Source of the DNA: a virus
Lineage: Duplodnaviria; Caudoviricetes
Length of the DNA: 64,000 bases
Virus record (IMG/VR): IMGVR_UViG_3300042366_000756
Coordinates: 1-64,000 of that record
Direction: 5' to 3' (one strand)
The stretch's first letter is position 1. Each line of letters opens with the position of its first letter. Both the position numbers and the translations under genes were made by a program. Shown piece by piece: positions 1,534 through 43,981 of this stretch. The notes beneath the pieces are model-generated. The model saw nothing but the letters and a program-made list of their open reading frames with translations, had not been told where the DNA came from and searched no databases.

Positions 1534-2124
1534 ATGTATGAAAAACGTATACTAGCACCTGGCATAATTCTTTATAGAACTGGTGAAGCATCTGTTGCAG
1601 GACTTAAAGATAAAATAAATTCATCAATTCCTTCAGAAGAATGGAGAGAAGCACGTGTAATAAACCCAGAAACATATGAATCACAGGCAGGTGATCAAAG
1701 AAAATGCCATGATTTTGTTTTGTATAATGATAACGAAACCCTAAAAGATTTATATAAAGAAATAGATGATTGGATATCTCCAGCATTCAAAGATTTTGAA
1801 AAAGAATATTTTGTAGAAAAAACAACTTCAGAGATGTATGTAATATTAAAATATGAAAACTTAGGTAAGTATGATCCACACGTAGATGATGGTGGCAGAT
1901 TCCCTAGAACAATTTCTCTTAGTGCATATATTAATGATGATTACGAAGGCGGAGAACTTGACTTTGTTAATTTTGGTGTTAGACATAAGCCAAAAACTGG
2001 AGATATTATACTTTTTTGTAGTGCTTTTCCATATATGCACATGGTTTCTCCAGTAAAGTCTGGAACCAGATATGCAATAGTAAATTGGTATAGATACTCA
2101 ACATATCCAAAAGAGATAATTTAA
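1534..2124 (+). CDS. Prolyl 4-hydroxylase-like 2OG-Fe(II) oxygenase
   Basis: PHVD...YINDDYEGGEL...HMVSPVKSGTRY motifs. Confidence 0.9.
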   Translation: MYEKRILAPGIILYRTGEASVAGLKDKINSSIPSEEWREARVINPETYESQAGDQRKCHDFVLYNDNETLKDLYKEIDDWISPAFKDFEKEYFVEKTTSEMYVILKYENLGKYDPHVDDGGRFPRTISLSAYINDDYEGGELDFVNFGVRHKPKTGDIILFCSAFPYMHMVSPVKSGTRYAIVNWYRYSTYPKEII

Positions 2125-3407
2125 TGAATGTTGGCTTTATTGGATTAGGAAAACTTGGACTACCGTGTGCAGCAGCAATGAGCGTAAAGTCTAACAAGAA
2201 AATTTTTGGATATGATCAAAATAAAAAAGTTAAAGAATACATTGAAACAAACACAGTCCCATATGTAGAAAAAGATATAGAGTATTTTTTATCTAAATCT
2301 AATTTAAAATTTCTTGAGTCAGCAGAAGAGGTAATAGAAAAATCTGACATTATTTTTATTGCAGTTCAAACTCCACACGATATTAAATTTGAAGGAATTA
2401 CACCGATTCCAGAAGAAAGATCTGACTTTGATTATTCATATTTAAAGAATGTAATTGTAGAGGTAAACGCTTACTTAGAAAAAAATAAAGATAAAAATAT
2501 AAATTTGGTAATAATTTCAACAGTCTTACCAGGAACAATAGGCAATGAGATTCTTCCTATTTTGAAAAATGTAAAACAAAGGGTAAAACTTACATACAAT
2601 CCTTATTTTATTGCCATGGGAACTACAATTGAAGACTTCTTAAATCCTGAATTTATTCTTTTAGGAAGTGAAAATAAAGAATCTGAAGAAGTGTTAAATT
2701 TTTATAAAACATTCTTATATGCTCCAATAGCAAACGTTTCTATTGAATCAGCAGAACTTGCAAAAGTTGCCTATAATACTTTTATTGGATTTAAAATTGT
2801 TTTTGCAAACGCACTTGCAGAAATTACAAAAGCAATTGGTGGAAATGTAGATGAAGTGACAAATGTTTTATCTCTTGCAAAAAGAAGGATTATTTCTTCA
2901 ACATATATGAGTGCAGGAATGGGTGACGGTGGTGGTTGTCATCCAAGAGATCAAATTGCAATGTCTTGGCTTGCTAAAGAAATAGATATGTCTTTTGATA
3001 TTTTTGAATTTATTGCAAAAGCAAGAGACAAACAAACAGAAAGGCATGCAAAATATTTGCAAAATGTTCAAAGCCTTTACTATCCAGATACAGAAATTAT
3101 AATTCTTGGAGAGTCGTATAAGAAAAATATTGGAATAACTACTGGAAGTCCTTCAAAACTTTTACAATTTTATTTAGATGAATTGGGAGTAAGATATAAA
3201 GTTGTAGATCCTTTTGTTAAACAAGAAGAAATAAATTTTGATAGTGGAAGGTTATTTTTTGTTGCTACTCCGCATGACACCTTTAAGACTTTATTAATGC
3301 CAATAGGATCTCAAGTTATAGACCCATGGAAAGATTCAACCACACCTCAACAAGGAGTTGTTGTTACAAATTTGGGCAGAGGGTCTCATTATGGCAACGG
3401 AAGGTAA
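2124..3407 (+). CDS. ugd: UDP-glucose/GDP-mannose 6-dehydrogenase
   Basis: GLGKLG Rossmann motif, STVLPGT, NPYF...PEFILLG, ELAKVAYN, catalytic GGGCHPRD. Confidence 0.9.
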   Translation: MNVGFIGLGKLGLPCAAAMSVKSNKKIFGYDQNKKVKEYIETNTVPYVEKDIEYFLSKSNLKFLESAEEVIEKSDIIFIAVQTPHDIKFEGITPIPEERSDFDYSYLKNVIVEVNAYLEKNKDKNINLVIISTVLPGTIGNEILPILKNVKQRVKLTYNPYFIAMGTTIEDFLNPEFILLGSENKESEEVLNFYKTFLYAPIANVSIESAELAKVAYNTFIGFKIVFANALAEITKAIGGNVDEVTNVLSLAKRRIISSTYMSAGMGDGGGCHPRDQIAMSWLAKEIDMSFDIFEFIAKARDKQTERHAKYLQNVQSLYYPDTEIIILGESYKKNIGITTGSPSKLLQFYLDELGVRYKVVDPFVKQEEINFDSGRLFFVATPHDTFKTLLMPIGSQVIDPWKDSTTPQQGVVVTNLGRGSHYGNGR

Positions 3408-5024: not shown

Positions 5025-6701
5025 TTAATCTTTTTTTACAAGCACTTTGAGTTCTGGTAAATATAGATAGTCTATCTCTGAATTGTTAAAGGTTTTTAGT
5101 GCATCACTAAGTGTTTCAACTATAGCATTACCAGCAAGATTAAAAGATGTATTGAGTAAAATTGGAACATTAGTTATTTTATAAAATTCATTGATTAATT
5201 CATAATAATGTTTATTGTCTTTTTTTGAAACAGTTTGCATCCTACAAGTACCATCAACATGGGTTATTGCTGGAATAATTGTTTGTTTATCTTTTAATAC
5301 ATTAACTGCATACATCATAAATTTTGAATCTTTTAATCTTTCCATATCAAACCAATCCTGAGCATATTCTTCCATAACTGTTCCAGCAAATGGCCTAAAA
5401 AATTCTCTTTTCTTTACAATGTTTACATGATCTTTTCCATTTATATCTCTTGGATCATAAAGAATACTTCTATTTCCCAAAGCCCTGTGTCCAGCCTCTG
5501 ACTTTCCTTGATATAAAGCAACAATTTTTTTATTAGCAAGCAAACTTGCAACATATTCTTTACTTACATTTTTTATAATTTTTTGATTTTTTAAATCTTT
5601 TAGTTTATATTTATACTCTGGCCCATAATATACGTTTACTTGTTTAGATATTTCTTTAGACTGTGTTAAATTATGATACAAAAGTTTAGCGGCACCTAAT
5701 GAATTACCACTATCTGTTGACATAGGCTCAATATAAATATTAATATCTTTTGGTAGTTTCTTTAATAAATTATAATTAGATACACAGTTTAAGAAAAATC
5801 CTCCAGAAAGACAAACATTTTTTTCTCCCGTTTGTTTAATGAGTTCAACAATTTCTTCTGCAACTCGTTCTTGTATCTCTTTTTGTATTTTATAAGCAAG
5901 GTCTGCTTTTTCTTCAAAAGTTTCTAAGTTGGGAATTGATAATCTCATTTCTGAAAGAGTAGTTGTTCTTCCAAAAATTTTGTCATTGATTAATTTATCC
6001 TCATATAATTTAAAATTAAATTCTTTATCTTTTCCATAAGAGGATAACCCCATTGTTTTTCCAGAATCCCATACCGTAAGCCCTATCAACTCAGAAACTT
6101 TTTCAAAAACAGCACCCTCAGACATAGAGTTGGTAACATATATACGATCATCAATCCACAAAGGTATTTGGGGTAATTTAAAATCAACAGAGATATGCTT
6201 TTTAACTAAATAACTACGGTCAGGATATTCCTTTATAAAAGCAGATCCATTCTCATAACCATGAGAATTTTCTTTAAACATACTACCTGTAAGATTATAT
6301 GTAGATCCTTGTCCATCTTTTACTATACACAGTGCCCTGCTAAATCCAGAATTATAGAATGCTGTTGATGCATGAATTTCGTGATGGATATCCCAAAAAT
6401 CTACTTCCTTTACTCCATGTTCAAAAAAACTCTTTCCAAGTCCTTCAACATAACAGGTATATGGATCTAAATTATCTGCTGGATCTCCGTTGGCATATTT
6501 AGGATTTTTTTCTAATCCAGTTAAAACTATATAATCTACGTGATCAACATAATCTTTTATCTTTTGTATTACTTGAAAGGCGTATCTATCATGTCTACGA
6601 TTAGATAATCTTTCACTTTCTAGATGATAGACTACCTTGTTGTCAACTAATAATGTTGCAGATCCATCATGACGACCCCTACTTACCCCTAAAATTATCA
6701 T
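5025..6701 (-). CDS. Carbamoyltransferase, NodU/CmcH family
   Basis: HDGSA, ESERLS, HHEIH..AFY, GKTMGLSSYG, LSGGFFLNC, RALGNRSIL, KKREFFRPFA, HVDGTCRMQTV, LNTSFN. Confidence 0.95.
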   Translation of the reverse strand: MIILGVSRGRHDGSATLLVDNKVVYHLESERLSNRRHDRYAFQVIQKIKDYVDHVDYIVLTGLEKNPKYANGDPADNLDPYTCYVEGLGKSFFEHGVKEVDFWDIHHEIHASTAFYNSGFSRALCIVKDGQGSTYNLTGSMFKENSHGYENGSAFIKEYPDRSYLVKKHISVDFKLPQIPLWIDDRIYVTNSMSEGAVFEKVSELIGLTVWDSGKTMGLSSYGKDKEFNFKLYEDKLINDKIFGRTTTLSEMRLSIPNLETFEEKADLAYKIQKEIQERVAEEIVELIKQTGEKNVCLSGGFFLNCVSNYNLLKKLPKDINIYIEPMSTDSGNSLGAAKLLYHNLTQSKEISKQVNVYYGPEYKYKLKDLKNQKIIKNVSKEYVASLLANKKIVALYQGKSEAGHRALGNRSILYDPRDINGKDHVNIVKKREFFRPFAGTVMEEYAQDWFDMERLKDSKFMMYAVNVLKDKQTIIPAITHVDGTCRMQTVSKKDNKHYYELINEFYKITNVPILLNTSFNLAGNAIVETLSDALKTFNNSEIDYLYLPELKVLVKKD

Positions 6702-11494: not shown

Positions 11495-11665
11495 TCATTT
11501 GCTATTAGCGCCAGCCTCATATGCAACCTTGTAAATTTCAGTAAGGCGCTCTAGCGTTGCTTTGTGGGCTTTGTCTTCATTTGACATTGCGGCTTCAAAG
11601 TAAATTAACTGCCATGCTTGGTCATCTAATTCTTCTTTGTGCTCTTTTGATATTTTGATTTTCAT
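11495..11665 (-). CDS. 56-aa hypothetical protein
   Basis: Manual translation MKIKISKEHKEELDDQAW...GANSK*; SD and promoter upstream. Confidence 0.6.
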   Translation of the reverse strand: MKIKISKEHKEELDDQAWQLIYFEAAMSNEDKAHKATLERLTEIYKVAYEAGANSK

Positions 11666-11695: not shown

Positions 11696-11717
11696 ATTAT
11701 ATTGCAGGGCACTGACA
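11696..11717 (-). promoter_or_regulatory. RecA-NDp/PafBC-type promoter 1
   Basis: Minus strand TGTCAG-TGCCCTGCAA-TATAAT (10-nt spacing). Confidence 0.75.
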
Positions 11718-11956
11718 TTACCAATATTTTATAATAGTATTAAGGGTAGAATGGATTTGACAATCACAATCTCCCCCCATATTATCCATAAAGTCTAAGT
11801 GTGAGAAGTTATCCTCATAGATATCCTCTACGAGTCGTGCTATGGTTTTTTCATTTGTTTTGGTGGTCATACATTAATTTTACCTGAAACTGGGAAATAA
11901 GTCAACTATTCTTAATAGAATTTAGGGAAAAATGTTATGTGTTCTTAATCACAATA

Positions 11957-11980
11957 CCCGAGAAATATCACTCGGGCCCC
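11957..11980 (-). terminator. Hairpin immediately 3' of tRNA-Asp
   Basis: CCCGAG-8nt-CTCGGG inverted repeat. Confidence 0.5.
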
Positions 11981-11985
11981 ACTTG

Positions 11986-12059
11986 CGATTCCAACGGGAC
12001 TTGAACCCGCAACCTCTACCGTGACAGGGTAGCGATCTAACCAATTGATCTATGGAATC
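11986..12059 (-). tRNA. tRNA-Asp(GTC)
   Basis: Acceptor GATTCCA/TGGAATC, D arm GATC/GATC, anticodon arm CTACC-CTGTCAC-GGTAG, T arm GCGGG-TTCAAGT-CCCGT, discriminator G followed by CAA rather than CCA. Confidence 0.95.
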
Positions 12060-12063
12060 AAGA

Positions 12064-12088
12064 GAGCAGTTTTAAATCTTGCTCAGGA
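12064..12088 (-). repeat. Conserved early-region hairpin, copy 1
   Basis: Minus strand TCCT-GAGCA-AGATTTAAAAC-TGCTC; ends 4 nt before the tRNA 5' end. Confidence 0.85.
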
Positions 12089-12096
12089 TTTTATTG

Positions 12097-13113
12097 TTAT
12101 GCTACTTGTAAAACATTTTTTACAACAGTTAGCAAACGATTTTTTTCTGCGTTAATAGCAGGGTCAAAACCACTTGCAGCAGCAAACATGCTTTCAGTAT
12201 TAACACCACGAGCAGTGCGATACCAGTCAAGGCGTTCAGTTAGTGCATTGAAAGCGCCCCACGCATTACCAGCAATCATTCCGTTAAACTCACCAGTGTA
12301 AATATCGTTAATCATATCTACCTTGTTTGTCCACTTCTTAACAGAACCTTTAGCATCAGTTTCTGGCTTAGGATATGCAGCAAGAATAATGTTATTAAAA
12401 TCTTGTGCAGAGATTTCCTTAGCAATCATGGCATGTGCCATCTTGTCAAATTCGTCCATGTAAGAGTTAGCCATGCCTAGTGCTTGACGAGCAACGGCAA
12501 CCTTACCTTGAGCGGTTTGGGTATGACGGATTTTGAAAGATTGCTTAACGCCATCTTTTTTCTTAGTGCGGTTAAGTGCAACATTGAGAGTGTTAGCGCA
12601 CACAACACGAACAGGTGTGATGCTTGCTTGAATAGCGATTGAACCATCGTGTGATGTGTTAATAAGTAAATAAGTTTTGACCTTATCTGCAACACCGCTA
12701 GGGTCTAGAATTGTTTCACGCTCTAAAGCAAGAGAGCCAAACACTACACGCCCACCACTGATTGAACCAGCAGTTTCCCATCGTCCACCACCATCTAGAA
12801 TGTTATCACCAAAAGCAAATAACTCTTCATTTTGTAGTGGAACATAACGCTCACCAACAATTCCCAAAACATCAGTTTGAGATTTATCAGTAGGGTTTGT
12901 GCGAACGACATATTGATAGTTTTTATCTGATGTCATATTAGATGGAATTGTTAATTCATCTAATCTAACATTCCAGTTATTTAAGTTAGCAGCAATAAGC
13001 ATTTCGCTTGTATTTTTTTCAGTATCAAATACTGTGCCTAGATTATGCCATGCAGGTTCACGGAATGATGCAAAAGATGCAACGCCGTTTTGTGTTTCTA
13101 AGTCGTGAGCCAC
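12097..13113 (-). CDS. DUF932 / LGT_TIGR03299 phage-plasmid protein
   Basis: REPAWHNLG, VGERYVPLQNEELF, ETAGSI.GGR.VF, NTSHDGS, TPVRVVCANTL, IRHT. Confidence 0.9.
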   Translation of the reverse strand: MAHDLETQNGVASFASFREPAWHNLGTVFDTEKNTSEMLIAANLNNWNVRLDELTIPSNMTSDKNYQYVVRTNPTDKSQTDVLGIVGERYVPLQNEELFAFGDNILDGGGRWETAGSISGGRVVFGSLALERETILDPSGVADKVKTYLLINTSHDGSIAIQASITPVRVVCANTLNVALNRTKKKDGVKQSFKIRHTQTAQGKVAVARQALGMANSYMDEFDKMAHAMIAKEISAQDFNNIILAAYPKPETDAKGSVKKWTNKVDMINDIYTGEFNGMIAGNAWGAFNALTERLDWYRTARGVNTESMFAAASGFDPAINAEKNRLLTVVKNVLQVA

Positions 13114-13143
13114 GATTTCCTTCTTTCTTTTGTTGTTATTTTA

Positions 13144-13172
13144 AGTATAACAGGATGGGCTGACAAATGCAA
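13144..13172 (-). promoter_or_regulatory. RecA-NDp/PafBC-type promoter 2 (also has a -35)
   Basis: TTGCAT-17nt-TATACT with TGTCAG exactly 10 nt before the -10. Confidence 0.8.
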
Positions 13173-13249
13173 GCCAAGATTAGGGAAAATACTTTAATCC
13201 TCTTAAATCGGATAAATCGGACATTTGGGGCGCCCCGAGATTTTTTGTG

Positions 13250-13274
13250 GGCCAGTTTTAAATCATGGCCAGGA
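13250..13274 (-). repeat. Conserved early-region hairpin, copy 2
   Basis: TCCT-GGCCA-TGATTTAAAAC-TGGCC; compensatory stem changes relative to copy 1. Confidence 0.85.
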
Positions 13275-13297
13275 TCTTTGATAGCCCCCTACCAAAT

Positions 13298-13777
13298 TTA
13301 GTAGTGGTCCTCTAATTGGACTTCGTCTACAGTTAAATCTGCATCATAGTCATATGAATTAAGTTCTGCTTCAATTGAAACATTGCTTAAATCAAAGTCA
13401 GCAATTTCTGACATTGGGACGCTGATTGTTCCACTGAATGTAACAGTTCCCTGCACTTCAATTTCCTTGACTGGATTAATACCAAAGAGTTCGCATAGCG
13501 CTACAAGAACTTCTTCTTTAGAATAGTTAGGGTCATACCATTCTACAATGCTGTCTTCAAGTTGACTTATTGTTCCTTGAATGCTACGCAAAGATTCTTC
13601 ACGAGCACGTGCACTATGGAGTTCCCATTCAAGGTCTGTTACCTTGGATGTTAAATACGTTGGTTCTTCAGGAGCAGCATATGTTCCTGCAATTGCTTTA
13701 TATGTTACAAGAAGGTTGGGGTTGTAAGGAACTTCTAGTTTATCAATTGTTACTGCGTCACTGATATTGGTTGACAT
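13298..13777 (-). CDS. Hypothetical early protein
   Basis: ORF track; SD and promoter upstream. Confidence 0.8.
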   Translation of the reverse strand: MSTNISDAVTIDKLEVPYNPNLLVTYKAIAGTYAAPEEPTYLTSKVTDLEWELHSARAREESLRSIQGTISQLEDSIVEWYDPNYSKEEVLVALCELFGINPVKEIEVQGTVTFSGTISVPMSEIADFDLSNVSIEAELNSYDYDADLTVDEVQLEDHY

Positions 13778-13808
13778 TTGGGGCCTCTTTCTGTTTGATT
13801 ATAATATA

Positions 13809-13837
13809 ATTCTAACAGGGACTACTGACAAATGCAA
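13809..13837 (-). promoter_or_regulatory. RecA-NDp/PafBC-type promoter 3 (also has a -35)
   Basis: TTGCAT-17nt-TAGAAT containing TGTCAG-N10. Confidence 0.8.
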
Positions 13838-13867
13838 CTTAATCTTAAACTATCTTAAAGGATAAAA

Positions 13868-13883
13868 TGTGATTTAGATCACG
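13868..13883. promoter_or_regulatory. CRP/GlxR-type box
   Basis: TGTGA-TTTAGA-TCACG. Confidence 0.6.
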
Positions 13884-13919
13884 TTGCCTCGGGCCCGCTT
13901 TGCGGGGAAATTAAAAGGT

Positions 13920-13944
13920 GAGCAGTTTGAAATCATGCTCAGGA
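13920..13944 (-). repeat. Conserved early-region hairpin, copy 3
   Basis: TCCT-GAGCA-TGATTTCAAAC-TGCTC. Confidence 0.85.
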
Positions 13945-13951
13945 TTTTTTA

Positions 13952-14122
13952 TTATTTAGTCGTGCTTACCATAGCAAGACGACGAGAACCATTTGCTAAC
14001 TGTAAAGAGATACGAGTTAGTTTAGAGTTAATAGGTGAGAACTTTACAATTCTACCTGTTACGCCAGTTTTGCTTGTGGTGAATAAATCACCGATTTGGT
14101 ATGTGTATCCGCCTAGTGTCAT
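13952..14122 (-). CDS. 56-aa small beta-barrel (SH3/KOW-like) protein; not in ORF track
   Basis: Manual translation MTLGGYTYQIGDLFTTSKTGVTGRIVKFSPINSKLTRISLQLANGSRRLAMVSTTK*; GAAAGG SD. Confidence 0.7.
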   Translation of the reverse strand: MTLGGYTYQIGDLFTTSKTGVTGRIVKFSPINSKLTRISLQLANGSRRLAMVSTTK

Positions 14123-14153
14123 TTGTATTGCCTTTCGTTTATGGTGGTTTGGT

Positions 14154-14180
14154 GAGCAGTTTTAGTAGTCATGCTCAGGA
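14154..14180 (-). repeat. Conserved early-region hairpin, copy 4
   Basis: TCCT-GAGCA-TGACTACTAAAAC-TGCTC. Confidence 0.85.
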
Positions 14181-14197
14181 CTTTTTCCGTTTAGGAA

Positions 14198-14620
14198 TTA
14201 TAGATAACGAGCAACCGCATTGTAAGTTGAGGTATTAACTGTTTCCTCATCTGTCATTTTAAGAATACGAATTGCGTTAGAGATTTCCTCTTTTTGTTCG
14301 TTGTAAGTGTGAGTATGAATTACCTCAAAATCTTTCTGAGGTTCAGCAGGAAAGTTGCCCTCCTTAACTGTTAAGTCAAAATCAACATTAAGGTTGTTTG
14401 ACCATTGACGATAGTTAGTTCGCACATTTTCAGCCTTATCTATATTAGCGATAGCGAAAGTAAATAACTCTTTTTTCCAAGCCTCATAAGCCTTTAGGTG
14501 CTTTGCTTCGTTCTCGCCTTGTGTTGCGTAGTCCTTCTCTAGTTTTGCTAGAGAGGCTTCTAGTGCGGTGATAACTCTTTGTGTAGGTATCTTTACTGAT
14601 ATTGCTTTGCCTCTTGCCAT
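14198..14620 (-). CDS. Hypothetical early protein
   Basis: ORF track; promoter upstream. Confidence 0.8.
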   Translation of the reverse strand: MARGKAISVKIPTQRVITALEASLAKLEKDYATQGENEAKHLKAYEAWKKELFTFAIANIDKAENVRTNYRQWSNNLNVDFDLTVKEGNFPAEPQKDFEVIHTHTYNEQKEEISNAIRILKMTDEETVNTSTYNAVARYL

Positions 14621-14653
14621 TTATTTTTCTCTTTTCTTTGATGGGTTATTTAT

Positions 14654-14675
14654 AGTATAGGGGGTGGGTCTGACA
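14654..14675 (-). promoter_or_regulatory. RecA-NDp/PafBC-type promoter 4
   Basis: TGTCAG-ACCCACCCCC-TATACT; no recognisable -35. Confidence 0.75.
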
Positions 14676-14682
14676 TTAAGTT

Positions 14683-14709
14683 GAGCAGTTTTAGTTGTCA
14701 TGCTCAGGA
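14683..14709 (-). repeat. Conserved early-region hairpin, copy 5
   Basis: TCCT-GAGCA-TGACAACTAAAAC-TGCTC. Confidence 0.85.
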
Positions 14710-14730
14710 CATTTAGCCACTAGGCTAAGG

Positions 14731-14898
14731 TTATGACTTTGCTGTCCAAGTTGTCCAGCGAGTTGAGCCATTAACATCTAACTTAACACGAACATTACCA
14801 TTTGCCTGTGGCACGATTTCTGTAATTGTTCCTGTTGCCTTTGACTTTTGGCTTGTGTAGGTATCTCCTACTTTGTAGATTGCGTTTGATACTGACAT
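14731..14898 (-). CDS. 55-aa small beta-barrel (SH3/KOW-like) protein, paralog of 13952..14122; not in ORF track
   Basis: Manual translation MSVSNAIYKVGDTYTSQKSKATGTITEIVPQANGNVRVKLDVNGSTRWTTWTAKS*. Confidence 0.7.
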   Translation of the reverse strand: MSVSNAIYKVGDTYTSQKSKATGTITEIVPQANGNVRVKLDVNGSTRWTTWTAKS

Positions 14899-14928
14899 TG
14901 TGTTTCCTTTCGTTTGGTTGATATATTA

Positions 14929-14957
14929 ACTATAACATTTCCTACTGACATTATCAA
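14929..14957 (-). promoter_or_regulatory. RecA-NDp/PafBC-type promoter 5 (also has a -35)
   Basis: TTGATA-17nt-TATAGT containing TGTCAG-N10. Confidence 0.75.
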
Positions 14958-14997
14958 GTTATTTCTGACATTTCTCACATTTTGAGATGATTATTCT

Positions 14998-15013
14998 TGT
15001 GAGATACATCACA
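14998..15013. promoter_or_regulatory. CRP/GlxR-type box (perfect)
   Basis: TGTGA-GATACA-TCACA. Confidence 0.7.
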
Positions 15014-15104
15014 TTAGGACAAATCGGACATTACTTATGCCCAAGACCTGCGCTGAGTAGCATGATAAATAAGATAGTTAGAATTGCTATTTCCACAATT
15101 ACCC

Positions 15105-15833
15105 CTATTTTTTAGACGATGAGAATACTATGTCGCTCTTTGAGTATACACACAATCCGCAAGATACGCAAGCGGAGCCTGCATTTGATATTAGGGGAAT
15201 TGCCTTTAAGTTTTCAGGACACTTAGCCCCAGGCCTGTTGGTTAACTCTTTCATATCTGCTTGACCTATTGCAAAATTTTTGGCAAGGTATGCAAGGCGA
15301 ACACCATTATTAATTTTAAGATCAACACCTATAGCCTTATTCTCACTATCTGTTGAATAGTATAAAGATAGATTATCTATTCCGTTTAGTATGAGGGCGG
15401 CAGATCTAACACGAGTATATACCCAGAATTGAATTTCAGGATGATTAGTGATGACTGTTTTCCAAGCATTAGTATAAGTATCACTAAAGAAGTCGCCATC
15501 CCAGTGAATGCGGAATAGTTTAGGAGCGTTTTTCTTATTGCAATCATTTATGAAATCAACAATCATCTCATCCAATAGAACAAGCATTGTTTCCATATCT
15601 GCATTGCGAAGTAAATCCCAGTTATGGAGTAAATTCTTTTTTACTGTTGGGAATAGTCTTTCAAGTTTTCCTGCGTAGCAAACGCTTTCACAAACACTAG
15701 TGGCACCAGGGCACGAGAAATCTTTTCCAGCAGGTAAACCGAAAGTGTTGGCAAGGGCTGATTGTTTTCCATTTTTTGTGACAAGGTTAGTCACCTTTCT
15801 ATCGTTGGAGCGTTTTAGTTGTGGTGTAGTCAT
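15105..15833 (-). CDS. GP88-family protein (radical-SAM-like Cys motif)
   Basis: FGLPAG..FSCPGATSVCESVCYA, FRIHWDGDFFS, FWVYTR, CVSCGLC. Confidence 0.8.
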   Translation of the reverse strand: MTTPQLKRSNDRKVTNLVTKNGKQSALANTFGLPAGKDFSCPGATSVCESVCYAGKLERLFPTVKKNLLHNWDLLRNADMETMLVLLDEMIVDFINDCNKKNAPKLFRIHWDGDFFSDTYTNAWKTVITNHPEIQFWVYTRVRSAALILNGIDNLSLYYSTDSENKAIGVDLKINNGVRLAYLAKNFAIGQADMKELTNRPGAKCPENLKAIPLISNAGSACVSCGLCVYSKSDIVFSSSKK

Positions 15834-15839
15834 ATAAAA

Positions 15840-15868
15840 ATTGTAGCAGAATATGGGAAAAATATCAA
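15840..15868 (-). promoter_or_regulatory. Canonical sigmaA promoter (leaderless GP88)
   Basis: TTGATA-17nt-TACAAT; ATG 6 nt downstream. Confidence 0.7.
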
Positions 15869-15914
15869 GTTGTCTTAATTAGTATAAATCGGACAAATCG
15901 CCCTCGGGCGTTTC

Positions 15915-16139
15915 CTATTGCAACATCATTAAATAAAACTTTTGGTATTCACCAACTTGAATTGTTTCTCTTTCACCAAAATCATTTATAATTTCTAAAG
16001 TGTATCCATCAGGTAATGAAATAATTTCAACAATAGATACAATTTCATCGTCAACTAAAATTAAATCATCAACTTCTAATTGATTTGAAGTTAAAATATC
16101 TACCTTAACATACTCCATGTGCATTATTGTAGCAGCCAT
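15915..16139 (-). CDS. Small beta-barrel-like hypothetical protein
   Basis: ORF track; L..DDLI...EIVSIVEI beta pattern. Confidence 0.65.
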   Translation of the reverse strand: MAATIMHMEYVKVDILTSNQLEVDDLILVDDEIVSIVEIISLPDGYTLEIINDFGERETIQVGEYQKFYLMMLQ

Positions 16140-16224
16140 TTATTCAGCCTCAATTTCACTAAGCAGATCCCAAAGAATTGGCTCTAATGAAAGAGCCGTT
16201 GCATCTAGTTTTTCTTGTAAGGTT

Positions 16225-16521
16225 TTACTCATATAAATCCTCGCTTGCTGGGTTAATGAACCACTCTAGGTGGTGCTGACTTACAATTGCGCTTGCTGGT
16301 GCTTGCTTACTACCTTTGTAGGTAATCTGAAAATCACCAACCATTGGCATATCTATCATTCGTGAATAGTCCTCATCATAGTAAGCGTCAATTGCTTCAA
16401 TGCAAGGCTGAACCATTTCTGTTGGCACTGGTGGATAATGATTACCTTTTAGGTGATAAAGTAATTGTGTTTCTAAGTCTAGCGTTGTATCTGCTAATCC
16501 AATTGCTGTTACGCTTCCCAT
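16225..16521 (-). CDS. Hypothetical early protein
   Basis: ORF track; YHL.GNHYPP. Confidence 0.75.
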   Translation of the reverse strand: MGSVTAIGLADTTLDLETQLLYHLKGNHYPPVPTEMVQPCIEAIDAYYDEDYSRMIDMPMVGDFQITYKGSKQAPASAIVSQHHLEWFINPASEDLYE

Positions 16522-16522
16522 A

Positions 16523-16738
16523 TTATTTTCCCCCTACGTTTCCATTAGCATAAAATATCTTAGTATGCATCTTACCTGAAGGCTCTGACAAGTTAATTGT
16601 TGCATATTCACTAGCAAATCCATAGTCTGTAAATTTATTAAATTCACTAACTGCGTCAAGTGCATTATCATAGCGACCAATCCAATGAGGCGACCTATCT
16701 CCGTCATAGGTAGCCGTTACTGAGTATAAGTATTCCAT
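16523..16738 (-). CDS. Hypothetical early protein
   Basis: ORF track; coupled to neighbours. Confidence 0.7.
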   Translation of the reverse strand: MEYLYSVTATYDGDRSPHWIGRYDNALDAVSEFNKFTDYGFASEYATINLSEPSGKMHTKIFYANGNVGGK

Positions 16739-16909
16739 TATGCATTCTCCTTTATTTCGTTTTCATTATGCCAAATTTCAAATTCACTAAACAAGTGCTG
16801 ACCTTTTTCGCAATCACCACAAAATTCAGTTATCATATCGCTTTCTACAATTACTCCACTATCGTAGCAAGTGTAGCAATCTCCAATTTCATCAAATATA
16901 TTTCCCATA

Positions 16910-17119
16910 TTATTCACCTACCTTAACCGCAATAGTTGCGTATTGAGTTTTTATTGAGCCACGATAATCTATTCCAATTAAATAGGCTTCAGTTTTTTCG
17001 CCATAGTAAACTTCTGGGCGATGCTCAGCAGAAATAATTTCACCCTCAAAGTGGCGATTTCGTGAGCGGTATTCCTTACCAATTAGTAAGTCTTGTATTG
17101 TGTATAGTTTGGTAGCCAT
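16910..17119 (-). CDS. Small beta-barrel-like hypothetical protein
   Basis: ATG at 17119 (MATKLY) after GAAGG SD. Confidence 0.7.
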   Translation of the reverse strand: MATKLYTIQDLLIGKEYRSRNRHFEGEIISAEHRPEVYYGEKTEAYLIGIDYRGSIKTQYATIAVKVGE

Positions 17120-17154
17120 TGGCAGACCTTCTTTCTTTTTGTTTATATAAAATA

Positions 17155-17176
17155 ATCTTAGCAGATAAGGCTGACA
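17155..17176 (-). promoter_or_regulatory. RecA-NDp/PafBC-type promoter 6
   Basis: TGTCAG-CCTTATCTGC-TAAGAT, preceded by ACGGCGTGTCAG. Confidence 0.75.
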
Positions 17177-17300
17177 ATTCATAACTGACACGCCGTAATT
17201 CTTAAACTATTTAATTTTTCTTACTCTGTAAGTCTATTCTATTAGACATAAAATATCAAATTACTGGCGGGTAATTCCAAATAGTAAGACGCTCAATCTG

Positions 17301-17316
17301 GGTGATTTTAATCACA
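17301..17316. promoter_or_regulatory. CRP/GlxR-type box
   Basis: GGTGA-TTTTAA-TCACA. Confidence 0.6.
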
Positions 17317-17332
17317 TCTTAAAAGATCACCC

Positions 17333-17352
17333 TGTGGATAACCTGTGGATAA
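17333..17352. promoter_or_regulatory. Two tandem perfect DnaA boxes
   Basis: TGTGGATAA-CC-TGTGGATAA (reverse complement TTATCCACA x2). Confidence 0.75.
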
Positions 17353-17364
17353 CGCCTCGGGTTT

Positions 17365-17380
17365 TAGAACAGATGTTCGG
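17365..17380. promoter_or_regulatory. Gram-positive/actinobacterial LexA (SOS) box
   Basis: TAGAAC-AGAT-GTTCGG vs consensus TCGAAC-N4-GTTCGA. Confidence 0.55.
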
Positions 17381-17403
17381 ACAGTTTTAGATCGTGTCCA
17401 GGA
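17379..17403 (-). repeat. Conserved early-region hairpin, copy 6
   Basis: TCCT-GGACA-CGATCTAAAAC-TGTCC; third stem variant. Confidence 0.85.
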
Positions 17404-17410
17404 TTTCTAT

Positions 17411-17620
17411 TTATACTTTAAACATTTCAGAACCAACAGGAATTAAACCAATTTCATCAATACCGCAAGCCTTTTCAAATCTTGCGAAATCAAAGTTTTC
17501 GTTATCTGATTTAAACCAATCAGCAAAAGTATCTACTAAATCCTCATAAGTAGTTTGCGGAATTTCATCTACAAAACTTTTTAAAATATTTGCGGTTTGA
17601 ATATAGTCTTTTCTAGTCAT
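17411..17620 (-). CDS. Hypothetical early protein
   Basis: ORF track; MTRKDY...F..DN.NFD..RF..AC. Confidence 0.75.
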   Translation of the reverse strand: MTRKDYIQTANILKSFVDEIPQTTYEDLVDTFADWFKSDNENFDFARFEKACGIDEIGLIPVGSEMFKV

Positions 17621-17829
17621 TATTCAGCCAACTTTAAAGTAGCCCAAGAGTTGCCTGCGTTCATTCTATCCAAAACATCAAGGTCAATTAACGCTGCGGT
17701 AAGAGTGCTACGCAATAACAATTCCATTTCAAGTTCGCTAAGGTTTACAAAACGGCTTAACAACTCGTCAGGCATTTTGTTTTCATCAATTTCAGTTACG
17801 AATTTTATTGAGTGGTTTAGTTTTATCAT
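17620..17829 (-). CDS. Hypothetical early protein
   Basis: ORF track; coupled. Confidence 0.7.
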   Translation of the reverse strand: MIKLNHSIKFVTEIDENKMPDELLSRFVNLSELEMELLLRSTLTAALIDLDVLDRMNAGNSWATLKLAE

Positions 17830-17977
17830 TAGTTAGCCTCTCCGCTAGTAAATAGTGTGCCAAGTGTAAAATTTTCACACTCGCATTTTTCAACATCATA
17901 GTCAAGGTCATTACCCCAAAAGATGAGACCTGCTCCATTACACTCATCACAATCAAAAGACATTACGGAATTTATCA

Positions 17978-18163
17978 TTATGCTAACGCCTTTCCTCTAA
18001 GTGTTCCACGAACGCCAAGAGCGTCGCAAGACATTTTAACAGAGATACCAACAGGCAAAGCCTTTGGGTATTCGTTGATGAATTGAGATACAGCACCCTT
18101 TGAAGGAACGCTGATTTTTTTTACAGAACCATTAAAGGTTTCTAGTGTTATAGTGTAAGTCAT
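17978..18163 (-). CDS. Hypothetical early protein
   Basis: ATG at 18163 (MTYTITLE) after GAAAGGTGG SD. Confidence 0.7.
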   Translation of the reverse strand: MTYTITLETFNGSVKKISVPSKGAVSQFINEYPKALPVGISVKMSCDALGVRGTLRGKALA

Positions 18164-18197
18164 TTCTGACCACCTTTCTTTTTTTATTGATAAGACT

Positions 18198-18219
18198 ATC
18201 CTATCATTAAGCACTGACA
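18198..18219 (-). promoter_or_regulatory. RecA-NDp/PafBC-type promoter 7
   Basis: TGTCAGTG-CTTAATGA-TAGGAT. Confidence 0.75.
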
Positions 18220-18247
18220 TTTTGACCCATATCAGCAAGGGTTGAAG

Positions 18248-18263
18248 TGTGAGTTATCTCACA
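18248..18263. promoter_or_regulatory. CRP/GlxR-type box (perfect)
   Basis: TGTGA-GTTATC-TCACA. Confidence 0.7.
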
Positions 18264-18381
18264 AAGCGCCTTCTTGAAAGAGGGCTATTTCTAGATTAAG
18301 CAACTCGTCAGGAGTAGCATTAGATAAATCTACCCACCCAGCACCTTGCTCATCTAGTCTAAAAATTTCAACATATCCCAT
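18259..18381 (-). CDS. 40-aa hypothetical protein
   Basis: Manual translation MGYVEIFRLDEQGAGWVDLSNATPDELLNLEIALFQEGAL*; GAAAGGAAG SD. Confidence 0.6.
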   Translation of the reverse strand: MGYVEIFRLDEQGAGWVDLSNATPDELLNLEIALFQEGAL

Positions 18382-18487
18382 AGTTAGGACTTCCTTTCTT
18401 TATTTTCTTACTATGTAAGTTTATCCTATTATCCTTAAAATATCAACTTACTAGCCAGTAAGTCCAAATATTGAGACGCTCAAACTT

Positions 18488-18503
18488 TGTGATAAATCTC
18501 ACA
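18488..18503. promoter_or_regulatory. CRP/GlxR-type box (perfect)
   Basis: TGTGA-TAAATC-TCACA. Confidence 0.7.
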
Positions 18504-18552
18504 TCGTCCTTAAAGCGACACGCCGCCAGCGCCGAGTGATCCTCGGGTTTTT

Positions 18553-18678
18553 TTATTGCAATTTATTTTTATGTTTTATTTTTCTAGAATATTTTTTCTT
18601 ATTTGGGATTGCAGTCGCAGCATTACTACGACGCAATTCTTGAATACGAATTATTTTATTTTTTATTTCTTTTAACAT
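18553..18678 (-). CDS. 41-aa basic peptide with ArfA-like YxRKxKHK motif
   Basis: Manual translation MLKEIKNKIIRIQELRRSNAATAIPNKKKYSRKIKHKNKLQ*. Confidence 0.6.
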   Translation of the reverse strand: MLKEIKNKIIRIQELRRSNAATAIPNKKKYSRKIKHKNKLQ

Positions 18679-18680
18679 TT

Positions 18681-18785
18681 TTATTCCCAACAATCTGAAC
18701 AAGTATATTTGTTCTCATAGAATTCTGATTCTGAAATAGCGAACATTTCGCTATCGCAGATTAAACATTTAGCAAAATAGGTCAT
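18681..18785 (-). CDS. 34-aa Zn-finger peptide
   Basis: MTYFAKCLICDSEMFAISESEFYENKYTCSDCWE*. Confidence 0.55.
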   Translation of the reverse strand: MTYFAKCLICDSEMFAISESEFYENKYTCSDCWE

Positions 18786-18958
18786 TTTGTTAATGACCAA
18801 CTTGACCAACGACCTAAGCGGTCGCTTTCAGCGTCAATCCAAAAAGAGTCAATATTAGAGTCGCACTCTACGCATAGCGTATAGCGAACATCATTATAAA
18901 ATGAGATAGCACTCTCAAGAGGTGTGTGCTTTACGCACTTAGTAATTGTTGAATTCAT
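18782..18958 (-). CDS. 58-aa hypothetical protein (CxxH...CxxC)
   Basis: MNSTITKCVKH...CVECD...WSLTK*; GAAAGG SD. Confidence 0.6.
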   Translation of the reverse strand: MNSTITKCVKHTPLESAISFYNDVRYTLCVECDSNIDSFWIDAESDRLGRWSSWSLTK

Positions 18959-19008
18959 TTGAATTCCTTTCTAGTTTAAGGACTTTCCTTAACTTTCTTT
19001 ATACTATT

Positions 19009-19030
19009 ATTATAACAGGCACCACTGACA
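19009..19030 (-). promoter_or_regulatory. RecA-NDp/PafBC-type promoter 8
   Basis: TGTCAGTG-GTGCCTGT-TATAAT. Confidence 0.8.
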
Positions 19031-19148: not shown

Positions 19149-19190
19149 ACGGCGTGTCGTCTTGACTTTTGGGCTTATACCTGCTATAAT
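19149..19190 (+). promoter_or_regulatory. Strong sigmaA promoter with upstream ACGGCGTGTCGTC element
   Basis: TTGACT-17nt-TATAAT with extended TG. Confidence 0.85.
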
Positions 19191-19293: not shown

Positions 19294-19335
19294 ACGGCGT
19301 GTCGTCTTGACTTTTCAGGGTATATGTGTTAGACT
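19294..19335 (+). promoter_or_regulatory. Second tandem sigmaA promoter with ACGGCGTGTCGTC element
   Basis: TTGACT-17nt-TAGACT; CRP-like AGTGA-N6-TCACA at 19270-19285. Confidence 0.8.
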
Positions 19336-41788: not shown

Positions 41789-41950
41789 TTCAGCATATAA
41801 CTTTTGTTTTATATAAGTGCCTAACTCTAAAGTAAACATTTACTTTATTGTTTGAGTGTAAATCTTTGTTTTAATGTTGTGATATACTAAGACTACTTTA
41901 CAATTAGTAAAGCACTAATAATATTTTTTAATAGAAAGTTGGAAAAATTA

Positions 41951-43981
41951 ATGTCGGATACCTTTTCTTTTCGTTTGTCAGATGAGTTTGTAAACAAATA
42001 CTCCACAATCCCAGCACCATTTGGCTTTACAGACGCAGGCTCTAACTCATTGGGAGAAATTACGTTTATAAGAACATATTCCCGAATGAAAGAAGATGGA
42101 ACAAAAGAAAGATGGCATGAAGTTTGTAAGCGGGTAATTGAAGGAATGTATTCAGTACAAAAAAACCATGCTAAAGATAATCGTTTACCTTGGAATGACA
42201 ATAAAGCACAAAAATCTGCTCAAGAAGCCTTTCAAAGAATGTTTGAGTTAAAATGGACACCACCAGGACGTGGTCTTTGGGCATTTGGTACACCCATGAC
42301 TATGGACAAGCGTAACTCAGCATCTCTTCAAAACTGTGCAATGGTATCTACTCGTGATATTGATCGTAATGATCCAGGGGCACTGTTTTCATGGGTAATG
42401 GATGCATTAATGCTTGGTATTGGTGTTGGCTTTGATACAGTAGGTCAAGACAAAGAAATTATTATTCATGCCCCAACAGAGCCAGAAAATGTATGGGAAA
42501 TTCCAGATACCCGTGAAGGCTGGGTAGACTCTGTAAGAATGCTATTAAACTCATATTTGCGATCTAATCAGGCTATACAAAAGTTTAACTATGACCTTAT
42601 CCGTCCTCTAGGTGCCCCGATAAAGGGCTTTGGAGGGGTTGCTAGCGGTCCAGCACCACTCATTGCACTACACGACAAGATCAACACAGTAATTGGCGGT
42701 AGGGCAGGAGAAAAACTTGACTCTCGTGCAATTGTGGATATTGTTAATCTTATTGGTACATGTGTTGTTTCTGGAAATGTTCGTCGTTCTGCTACCTTGG
42801 CTTTAGGACTACCAGAAGATAAAGATTTTATTAATTTAAAAAATGCAGAAGTTTTTCCAGATAGAAATTCATTTAATTCAGAAAATCCAGGATGGGCTTG
42901 GATGTCTAATAATTCTATTTCTGCAGAAGTTGGAACAAAGTATGAAGACTATGTTGATTTAATTGCAGACAATGGTGAGCCAGGATTTATTTGGCTAAGT
43001 GTTGCTAGAGATTATGGAAGACTAGCCGATGCACCAGATTATAAAGATTCTCGTGTTATGGGTTTTAATCCTTGTGCTGAACAGCCATTAGAAAGTTATG
43101 AATTATGTACACTTGTAGAGGTTCATTTAAATCGTCATGAAGATAAAGAAGACTTTCTTCGTACATTAAAGTTTGCATATTTGTATGGAAAAACTGTAAC
43201 ATTAATGCCAACACATTGGCAAACCACAAATGGAATTATGCAACGTAATCGTCGTATTGGAACATCACTAACTGGCATTGCGTCATTTGCAGATACAAAA
43301 GGCATGCCAATAATTCGTGAGTGGATGGACGAAGGGTATAAAAAAATTCGTTCATATGATCACTCATACTCAGAATGGTTATGTGTACGTGAATCAATTC
43401 GTGTAACTACCGTCAAACCTTCTGGCTCTGTATCATTGCTTTCTGGTGCAACTCCTGGAGTTCACTGGGGTCCTGGAGGAGCATTCTATCTTCGTGCTAT
43501 TAGGTTTGGCAATACAGATCCAATGCTTCATTTATTTAAAGCAGCGGGGTATAAAATTGAAGCAGATCTAGTATCTGCAAACACTTCAGTAGTATATTTC
43601 CCAGTAGCATCTGGACATCCAAGATCTGAAAAAGATGTAAGTCTTTTTGAAAAAATTGGTTTGGCAGCAACTGCCCAAAAGTATTGGTCTGACAACGGAG
43701 TATCTGTAACTTTGTCATTTGATAAGGAATCTGAAACTAAACACATTGCTCCAGCATTACATATGTATGAGGGTCAATTAAAAGCAGTTTCATTTTTACC
43801 TATGGGCAATAAAACATATCCTCAACAGCCATACACTCAAATAACAAAAGAAGAGTATAACGCTTACGTTGGAACAATTGGTAAGATTGATTGGTCTGCT
43901 ATCTATGATGGAGTAGAAAATCTAGAAGCACAAGGTGAAGCCTATTGCAGTACAGACGCTTGTGAGATAAAATTATACTAA
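41951..43981 (+). CDS. nrdJ: Class II (adenosylcobalamin-dependent) ribonucleotide reductase
   Basis: RTYSR, PPGRGLW, LQNC, GNVRRSA, NPCAEQPLE..ELC, TTVKPSGSVS, C-terminal CSTDAC; no intein-sized insertion. Confidence 0.95.
   Translation: MSDTFSFRLSDEFVNKYSTIPAPFGFTDAGSNSLGEITFIRTYSRMKEDGTKERWHEVCKRVIEGMYSVQKNHAKDNRLPWNDNKAQKSAQEAFQRMFELKWTPPGRGLWAFGTPMTMDKRNSASLQNCAMVSTRDIDRNDPGALFSWVMDALMLGIGVGFDTVGQDKEIIIHAPTEPENVWEIPDTREGWVDSVRMLLNSYLRSNQAIQKFNYDLIRPLGAPIKGFGGVASGPAPLIALHDKINTVIGGRAGEKLDSRAIVDIVNLIGTCVVSGNVRRSATLALGLPEDKDFINLKNAEVFPDRNSFNSENPGWAWMSNNSISAEVGTKYEDYVDLIADNGEPGFIWLSVARDYGRLADAPDYKDSRVMGFNPCAEQPLESYELCTLVEVHLNRHEDKEDFLRTLKFAYLYGKTVTLMPTHWQTTNGIMQRNRRIGTSLTGIASFADTKGMPIIREWMDEGYKKIRSYDHSYSEWLCVRESIRVTTVKPSGSVSLLSGATPGVHWGPGGAFYLRAIRFGNTDPMLHLFKAAGYKIEADLVSANTSVVYFPVASGHPRSEKDVSLFEKIGLAATAQKYWSDNGVSVTLSFDKESETKHIAPALHMYEGQLKAVSFLPMGNKTYPQQPYTQITKEEYNAYVGTIGKIDWSAIYDGVENLEAQGEAYCSTDACEIKLY

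Follow-up and report, generated by a model that had tools for sequence, protein, structure and literature searches.

The 64,000-nucleotide (nt) stretch of DNA analysed here, hereafter the window, spans positions 1 to 64,000 of IMG/VR virus record IMGVR_UViG_3300042366_000756, the genome of a phage. In the block of leftward early genes between positions 11696 and 19030, the motif TGTCAG-N10-TAnnnT occurs nine times. Judging from the sequence, these sites represent real promoters that form a separate PafBC-type class, a verdict that is clear for eight of them. A member of this class consists of a W-TGTCAG box at about −29 to −23, usually a TGn in front of the −10 hexamer (extended −10) and a TAnAAT-like −10, and it usually has no −35. 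Because the box equals the PafBC consensus and recurs in a candidate host order bearing pafBC, while no reader encoded by the phage was found, host PafBC acting with sigma A RNA polymerase (RNAP) appears to be the likeliest reader, an assignment towards which we lean rather than commit ourselves.

The nine exact matches in the window compare with 0.70 expected (standard deviation 0.87, largest value 4) in 100 dinucleotide shuffles, which is the result of the motif scan against shuffled controls that a preliminary description of this DNA had proposed. Every one of them is a minus-strand site, the positions being 11696, 13144, 13809, 14654, 14929, 16569, 17155, 18198 and 19009, and the rest of the 90-kb genome contains none outside 11696–19030. 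The preliminary description had named eight leftward promoters; all eight were borne out, but the true total is nine, the match at 16569 having been overlooked. The plain hexamer TGTCAG occurs 33 times in the window compared with 29.6 expected, and since it is not enriched, the signal lies in the fixed spacing. Over the whole genome of 90,367 bp, a spacing of 10 nt yields nine sites, and each other spacing within 6–15 nt yields only zero to two.

At eight of the nine sites, the −10 ends 30–50 nt 5′ of a start codon that is preceded by a ribosome site of the GAAAGGA type, and six sites possess the extended −10. As described earlier, three sites read TGTCAGTG (11696, 18198 and 19009), and three have a −35 hexamer at 17 nt (14929, with TTGATA, as well as 13809 and 13144, both with TTGCAT); 11696 is a further such site, with TTGGTA. 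The leftward units headed by these promoters do include DUF932 with a tRNA, as the DUF932 gene (12097–13113) and then tRNA-Asp (11985–12059) follow the site at 13144.

Conservation of the box in related phages

In 80 related loci, a spacing of 10 nt gave 355 gene-strand sites, and any other spacing gave at most 72. The logo of the 292 unique sites reads gAAAW-TGTCAG-tSS-nnn-cTGn-TAnAAT. When the box was not imposed, TGTCAG was the top hexamer 10 nt upstream of TGnTAnnnT, with 201 occurrences versus at most 20 for any other, and TGTC was the dominant 4-mer at the box position (210 of 708, versus at most 15 for any other). With positions 5–6 left free, AG was found in 277 of the 471 TGTC-N12-TAnnnT sites and GG in 16, and with the −10 left free, TAnnnT followed at exactly 10 nt in 281 of the 572 unique TGTCAG occurrences. 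At position 0 of the box, A is as frequent as T, and the G at position 6 is near-invariant.

Complete relatives contain 5–15 sites in one block of ~10 kb, with a divergent copy at the block edge. The relatives use both TGTCAG and TGTCGG, and TGTCAG and TGTCGGTGG are mixed within a single relative genome. A stringent pattern scan of IMG/VR returned many more contigs of low guanine-cytosine (GC) content, from source records of up to 116 kb. Distant IMG/VR contigs carry 8–17 unidirectional sites within at most 14 kb, and their proteins are 37–60% identical to those of this phage. Since the box is kept at this level of identity, it characterises the family as a whole and has persisted through extensive divergence of the proteins.

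The divergent copy is a TGTCAG promoter that most relatives (L085–L162) have once, ~360–460 bp to the left of the first gene-strand site. At this border of the early block, the window has canonical rightward promoters instead (19162–19190 and 19307–19335).

Match to the PafBC promoter class

The in vivo consensus of PafBC obtained by chromatin immunoprecipitation sequencing (ChIP-seq) is tGTCgg(N10)tA(N3)T, with a −26 element at −23 to −28 (PMC8635444). The helix-turn-helix (HTH) domain of PafB reads both guanines of the GTC triplet via R46 and R50, and the mycobacterial PafBC promoters have no −35 and are unreadable by the holoenzyme alone (PMC8635444). PafBC is activated when single-stranded DNA (ssDNA) binds to its WYL domains (PMC11804915). 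The assignment of the phage motif to the actinobacterial RecA-NDp/PafBC type, made in the preliminary description, agrees with its architecture, which is identical to that of the published consensus (PMC8635444): the phage sites form a bipartite 22-nt motif with fixed spacing, an invariant GTC and R at position 5.

The PafBC-dependent promoters of Mycobacterium and other Actinobacteria (RecA-NDp or recA P1-type) thus carry the same box at −28 to −23, and they share with the phage promoters the invariant GTC and the canonical −10, and with most of these, it seems, also the absence of a −35. Unlike the bacterial promoters, the phage promoters are arranged in arrays of 5–17 unidirectional copies, which head small orphan genes and not repair genes. 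Furthermore, the phage prefers A at position 5, in contrast to the published box.

A comparable layout is found in the middle promoters of phage T4, in which an activator box (the MotA box at −30, used together with AsiA) likewise replaces the −35 above an intact −10. In both cases the housekeeping sigma would be re-aimed rather than replaced, to drive a second wave of early genes, and the comparison of sigma adaptation with the sigma appropriation of T4 has been drawn for PafBC itself (PMC8635444). T4 differs in employing two proteins of its own and in remodelling sigma domain 4, whereas in the present phage a factor of this kind is not detectable and the adaptor is presumed to be an ssDNA-sensing protein of the host. 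In temperate phages, LexA-controlled antirepressors wire phage genes to the host SOS regulator, and these phages likewise have host DNA-damage regulatory sites before phage genes. However, the LexA-wired cases concern repressor sites, temperate phages and induction, while the present case concerns an activator box, an integrase-less phage and lytic development. The literature that we searched on RecA-NDp/PafBC and phages or prophages contained nothing that describes promoters of the PafBC type in a phage genome, in line with the preliminary description, which knew of no account of this as a phage early-gene strategy. A 2025 study by Rafique et al., cited in PMC12848934, reportedly deals with pafBC and mycobacteriophage resistance.

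Phage genome, kinship and lifestyle

The IMG/VR record of the phage has 90,367 bp at 35% GC, a CheckV completeness of 82% and one tRNA. Its portal and DUF932 proteins are 46–53% identical to their counterparts in Streptomyces phages of cluster BE (Stanwilliamsviridae, e.g. Jay2Jay), with which it shares a common genome plan: a leftward small-gene block that includes DUF932 is followed, here as in Jay2Jay, by rightward genes for ribonucleotide reductase, portal, protease and capsid. The GC content differs, at ~50% in Jay2Jay versus 35% in this phage. The family consists of uncultured lake phages of 105–118 kb and forms a large and abundant group, with at least 598 portal relatives and at least 420 DUF932 relatives in IMG/VR.

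Gene searches were carried out in five 100%-complete relatives of 110–118 kb. All five contain WhiB above the Pfam cut-off, and WhiB is a marker of actinobacteria and actinophages (PMC10202952). In addition, GP88 and DUF932 are actinophage-type families, and the window contains a GP88-family gene. WhiB in the relatives and the kinship with the BE cluster point to an actinophage. A non-actinobacterial host, which was first suggested by the GC content of 35%, was rejected on these same two grounds, and the low-GC objection was also removed by the existence of low-GC actinobacterial genomes with the same box. Neither a tyrosine nor a serine integrase was found in the phage genome and the five complete relatives. 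Therefore, a temperate, damage-induction reading was rejected, and the phage appears virulent-looking from these six genomes. The isolated Planktophila phages, which have 39-kb genomes and their own sigma factor (PMC10202952), belong to a different group.

Candidate host order

A 1.3-Mb Actinomycetota metagenome-assembled genome (MAG) contains, through binning, one phage fragment whose portal shows 87% identity. The genomes of the order to which this MAG belongs have 1.2–2.2 Mb, are mostly single contigs of 1.3–1.5 Mb and show ~39–46% GC in the loci read, which fits acI/Nanopelagicales. In 41 genomes of this order, TGTCRGTG-N8-TAnnnT was found ~200 times versus ~30 for the reversed control, and by our own count ~2/3 of the boxes among the matches listed read TGTCAG. 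The box is situated ~150 nt 5′ of recA with a LexA box adjoining, and it also precedes carD, a DUF6504 gene and a LysM gene flanked by two LexA boxes. The earlier view of the phage box as a host-type promoter element is therefore in keeping with a plausible host order, in which the same box, mostly TGTCAG, stands before recA.

A search for host pafBC had also been suggested. It revealed a tandem WYL pair in all five genomes checked of this candidate order. In genome G007, both members of the pair are homologous over their full length to M. smegmatis PafB and PafC (7P5X; E 4e-39 and 9e-22), and in this one pair examined, PafB keeps both GTC-reading arginines. An actinobacterial order resembling acI/Nanopelagicales is thus a plausible host group.

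Other routes to the host were less useful. Assignment by MAG binning was inconsistent, as it pointed to several phyla, and served as a lead only. Assignment by tRNA-Asp was uninformative, with 85% identity to the candidate order and a 97% match in a Bacteroidia MAG, where it is located on a separate contig (C215) that is suspected to be phage DNA binned into the MAG. Two further contigs, G001:C195 (L203, from an Actinomycetota MAG) and G002:C102 (L204, from an Acidimicrobiaceae MAG), are short fragments of related phages with 4–6 TGTCGGTGG or TGTCAG promoters and a GP88 homologue, and here phage DNA has been binned into MAGs.

In the candidate order, many PafBC-type boxes are clustered in one variable region (G007:C1, ~443–490 kb; G028:C1, ~925–990 kb; L236–L247). 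These boxes stand before genes for a C5 cytosine methylase, TPR proteins, a subtilase and a trypsin-like protease, and the region may be a PafBC-controlled defence or mobile island.

Proposed mechanism

In the proposed mechanism, the PafB–PafC heterodimer of the host, once activated by ssDNA, would wedge between domain 4 of sigma A and the DNA. The PafB HTH would read the GTC triplet, and the housekeeping RNAP would then fire the boxed promoters by sigma adaptation. In this way, ssDNA in the cell would lead to expression of the small takeover-type genes, DUF932 and the tRNA. The ssDNA could come from the resected or replicating DNA of the phage itself, or from ultraviolet damage. The four canonical sigma A promoters of the region, two of them apparently leaderless, would provide PafBC-independent expression. 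We infer PafBC binding and dependence, the trigger, for which the preliminary description named injected or replicating DNA, the early timing and the identity of the host.

A wider proposal, which we consider unlikely, is that a whole family of abundant, virulent lake actinophages has no transcription factor of its own for the second early wave and borrows the host ssDNA alarm PafBC instead. As replication increased the copies of the 9–17 high-affinity boxes in each genome, these arrays would in addition titrate PafBC and thereby blunt the PafBC responses of the host. In the candidate order, such responses would extend to the C5 methylase, the TPR proteins and the proteases of the variable island, whose genes follow this box. 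PafBC and sigma adaptation have so far been known only as a bacterial repair switch. If host PafBC reads the phage boxes, this would be the first case found of a lytic phage re-aiming the host polymerase via a host-encoded, ssDNA-sensing adaptor and not via a sigma factor or MotA/AsiA-type proteins of its own. How well infection succeeds in the most abundant freshwater bacteria would then be tied to DNA damage, e.g. by sunlight, and arrays of WTGTCRG-N10-TAnnnT would be a signature marking the actinobacterial hosts of uncultured phages.

Weighing of the alternative readings

Several observations weigh against host PafBC as the reader, or against a strict dependence on it. Most boxed sites lack a good −35 (~65% score 3 or less), but about one-fifth possess one (5/6 or better in ~19%), and the extended −10 is present in 72% of the sites, two features in which they differ from the PafBC-dependent promoters of bacteria. 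Owing to this extended −10 and the occasional −35, the boxed sites are not clean "−35-less, PafBC-only" promoters. They are likely to have basal sigma A activity, to judge from these elements, and sigma A alone may even be sufficient, unlike at the mycobacterial PafBC promoters (PMC8635444). At bases 7–9 of the box, the phage logo has T-S-S versus the usual TGG of the host. The leftward early region of Jay2Jay, the nearest cultured relative examined, contains no TGTCRG-N10-TAnnnT site, so the box is not ancestral to the wider family. Fragments of portal relatives are binned in MAGs of Polynucleobacter, Luteolibacter, Flavobacterium, Bacteroidia and Acidimicrobiaceae as well as Actinomycetota, and the phage tRNA-Asp matches the candidate order over only 54 nt, at the 85% identity given above. 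Finally, dozens of small phage open reading frames (ORFs) have no detectable family, and one of these orphans could be the reader of the box.

The last point leads to a reader encoded by the phage. A WYL regulator of this kind, raised earlier as an alternative, was looked for and not found: the genome of the phage and the five complete relatives contain no WYL, PafB-HTH, HTH_PafC or Sigma70_r2 match, and only sub-threshold matches resembling sigma region 4 or HTH domains (12–14 bits) were seen, in ORFs of 57–66 amino acids far from the early region. An orphan activator is, in our view, less probable than host PafBC. It would be a small T4 MotA-like protein of an unrecognised family, expressed from the canonical promoters, that reads TGTCAG and recruits sigma A RNAP, and the likeness to PafBC would then be coincidence or mimicry. 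The presence of two promoter classes, four canonical and nine boxed, would fit an immediate-early to delayed-early cascade, and the majority of the early ORFs match nothing in Pfam or PHROG, while several carry zinc-ribbon-like CxxC pairs; ten early ORFs gave no match to a DNA-binding family. The deviation at bases 7–9 suits an activator of this kind as well, and the lack of the box in Jay2Jay would mean that the system arose inside this lineage. However, six features of the box match the host element together (the core, R at position 5, W at position 0, the 10-nt spacing, the orientation and the frequent TGn), which is much to ask of chance. Furthermore, the box stays constant while the proteins diverge down to 37–60% identity, and a slowly evolving host reader explains this more easily.

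The boxed sites might also be ordinary sigma A promoters that need no activator, their extended −10 being sufficient and TGTCAG representing either a weak −35 (TTGTCA) or a spacer preference spread by cassette duplication. The frequency of TGn, which can replace a −35, and the share of sites with a good −35 speak for this reading, and a simple promoter scan does read TTGTCA-17/18-TAnnnT at some sites. We nevertheless regard it as decidedly improbable. For TTGTCA to serve as the −35, position 0 must be T and another −10 must stand at offset 16, a combination present in only 26 of the 281 sites. A −35 hexamer leaves unexplained why A and T are equally frequent at position 0 and why G is near-fixed at position 6, and copying of cassettes is at odds with a box that is fixed while the sequences between box and −10 vary freely. 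The relation between box and −35 suggests a recruiting role in addition. The mean −35 score of the TGTCRG promoters is 3.04, close to the 2.56 at random positions, and sites with a decayed box that keeps GTC reach a mean of 4.49. At the orthologous DUF932 promoter, a comparison comprising few independent events, the box is lost or altered only together with a −35 of TTGACA or TTGACT and is kept wherever the weaker TTGCAT is present. This pattern of decay is suggestive of a box that substitutes for the −35.

The same trade-off argues for activation and not for a repressor operator of phage or host, which would lie in the spacer and shut the promoters off, as in the stoperator/operator systems of actinophages. 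A conserved site of this small size might obstruct the polymerase where it overlaps the spacer, and other regulator-like repeats, GTGA..TCAC palindromes and TGTCCGATTT, are present in the same intergenic regions. However, the box is asymmetric, has 6–7 bp, is strictly oriented and occurs at 10 nt from the −10 only, while operators are usually longer, often palindromic and tolerant of position. With no integrase found, there is also no sign of a temperate lifestyle that needs a master repressor, and we consider an operator very improbable. On this weighing, host PafBC with sigma A RNAP is the reader that we favour.

Promoters and genes of the early region

The early region contains the boxed promoters (class II) and the canonical sigma A promoters (class I), all of which are located on the minus strand, as are their genes. 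The rightmost class II promoter (19009–19030; TGTCAGTG..TGt TATAAT) heads a 58-amino-acid ORF (18782–18958) with a gap of 50 nt to the ATG. The class II promoter at 18198–18219 (TGTCAGTG..TGa TAGGAT) heads a 61-amino-acid ORF (17978–18163) and three more small ORFs, and ORF 16910–17119 is headed by the one at 17155–17176 (TGTCAGCC..TGc TAAGAT), to which a canonical promoter lies ~60 nt upstream. The ninth match (16569–16590) lies inside ORF 16523–16738, 47 nt 5′ of the ATG of ORF 16225–16521. It lacks TGn and could represent either an internal promoter or a match by chance.

Further to the left, the class II promoter at 14929–14950 combines TTGATA at 17 nt with TGt TATAGT and heads a 55-amino-acid ORF (14731–14898). 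The promoter at 14654–14675 (TGTCAGACCC..TATACT), with neither a −35 nor TGn, heads a 140-amino-acid ORF (14198–14620), and the promoter at 13809–13830 (TTGCAT at 17 nt, TGt TAGAAT) heads a 159-amino-acid ORF (13298–13777). The promoter at 13144–13165 (TTGCAT at 17 nt, TGt TATACT), whose orthologue is kept in relatives, heads the 338-amino-acid DUF932-family gene (12097–13113), 52–53% identical to proteins of Streptomyces BE-cluster phages, and tRNA-Asp (GTC) directly downstream (11985–12059). The leftmost promoter (11696–11717; TGTCAGTG..TATAAT, with TTGGTA at 17 nt) heads a 56-amino-acid ORF (11495–11665) and the genes beyond.

The second promoter class comprises four canonical promoters. 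The one at 15840–15868 (TTGATA-17-TACAAT with TG) precedes the GP88-family gene (15105–15833; PF17338, E 6e-54), which is therefore located behind a canonical promoter and not behind a TGTCAG promoter. Here, and likewise at 11877–11905 (TTGACT-17-TAAAAT, before ORF 11718–11870), the ATG follows 6 nt after the −10, so these two mRNAs are probably leaderless. Leaderless mRNAs are typical of actinobacteria, and the two apparently leaderless class I mRNAs would fit an actinobacterial host. The other two are TTGATA-17-TAAACT at 18418–18446, before ORF 18259–18381, and TTGATA-17-TAGACT at 17231–17259, which forms a tandem pair with the class II promoter at 17155.

Repeated small hairpins (tcctgagca-loop-tgctca) that have no T tract are located just 3′ of early-gene stop codons (window ~12064–17403) and may be actinobacterial-type terminators lacking a T tract, or processing sites. 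Several promoters have the TGTCCGATTT motif, in some cases doubled, ~45 nt upstream (window ~13215, 15040 and 15900); an alignment shows it to be conserved 5′ of the DUF932 promoter in relatives, and it is probably the site of another regulator. Palindromes of the type GTGA-N-TCAC, resembling CRP/GlxR sites, also occur upstream of promoters (window ~13870, 15010, 17300 and 18490). Elsewhere in the window, genes encode a class II (B12) ribonucleotide reductase (41939–43981), a carbamoyltransferase (5025–6701) and a UDP-glucose/GDP-mannose dehydrogenase (2124–3407).

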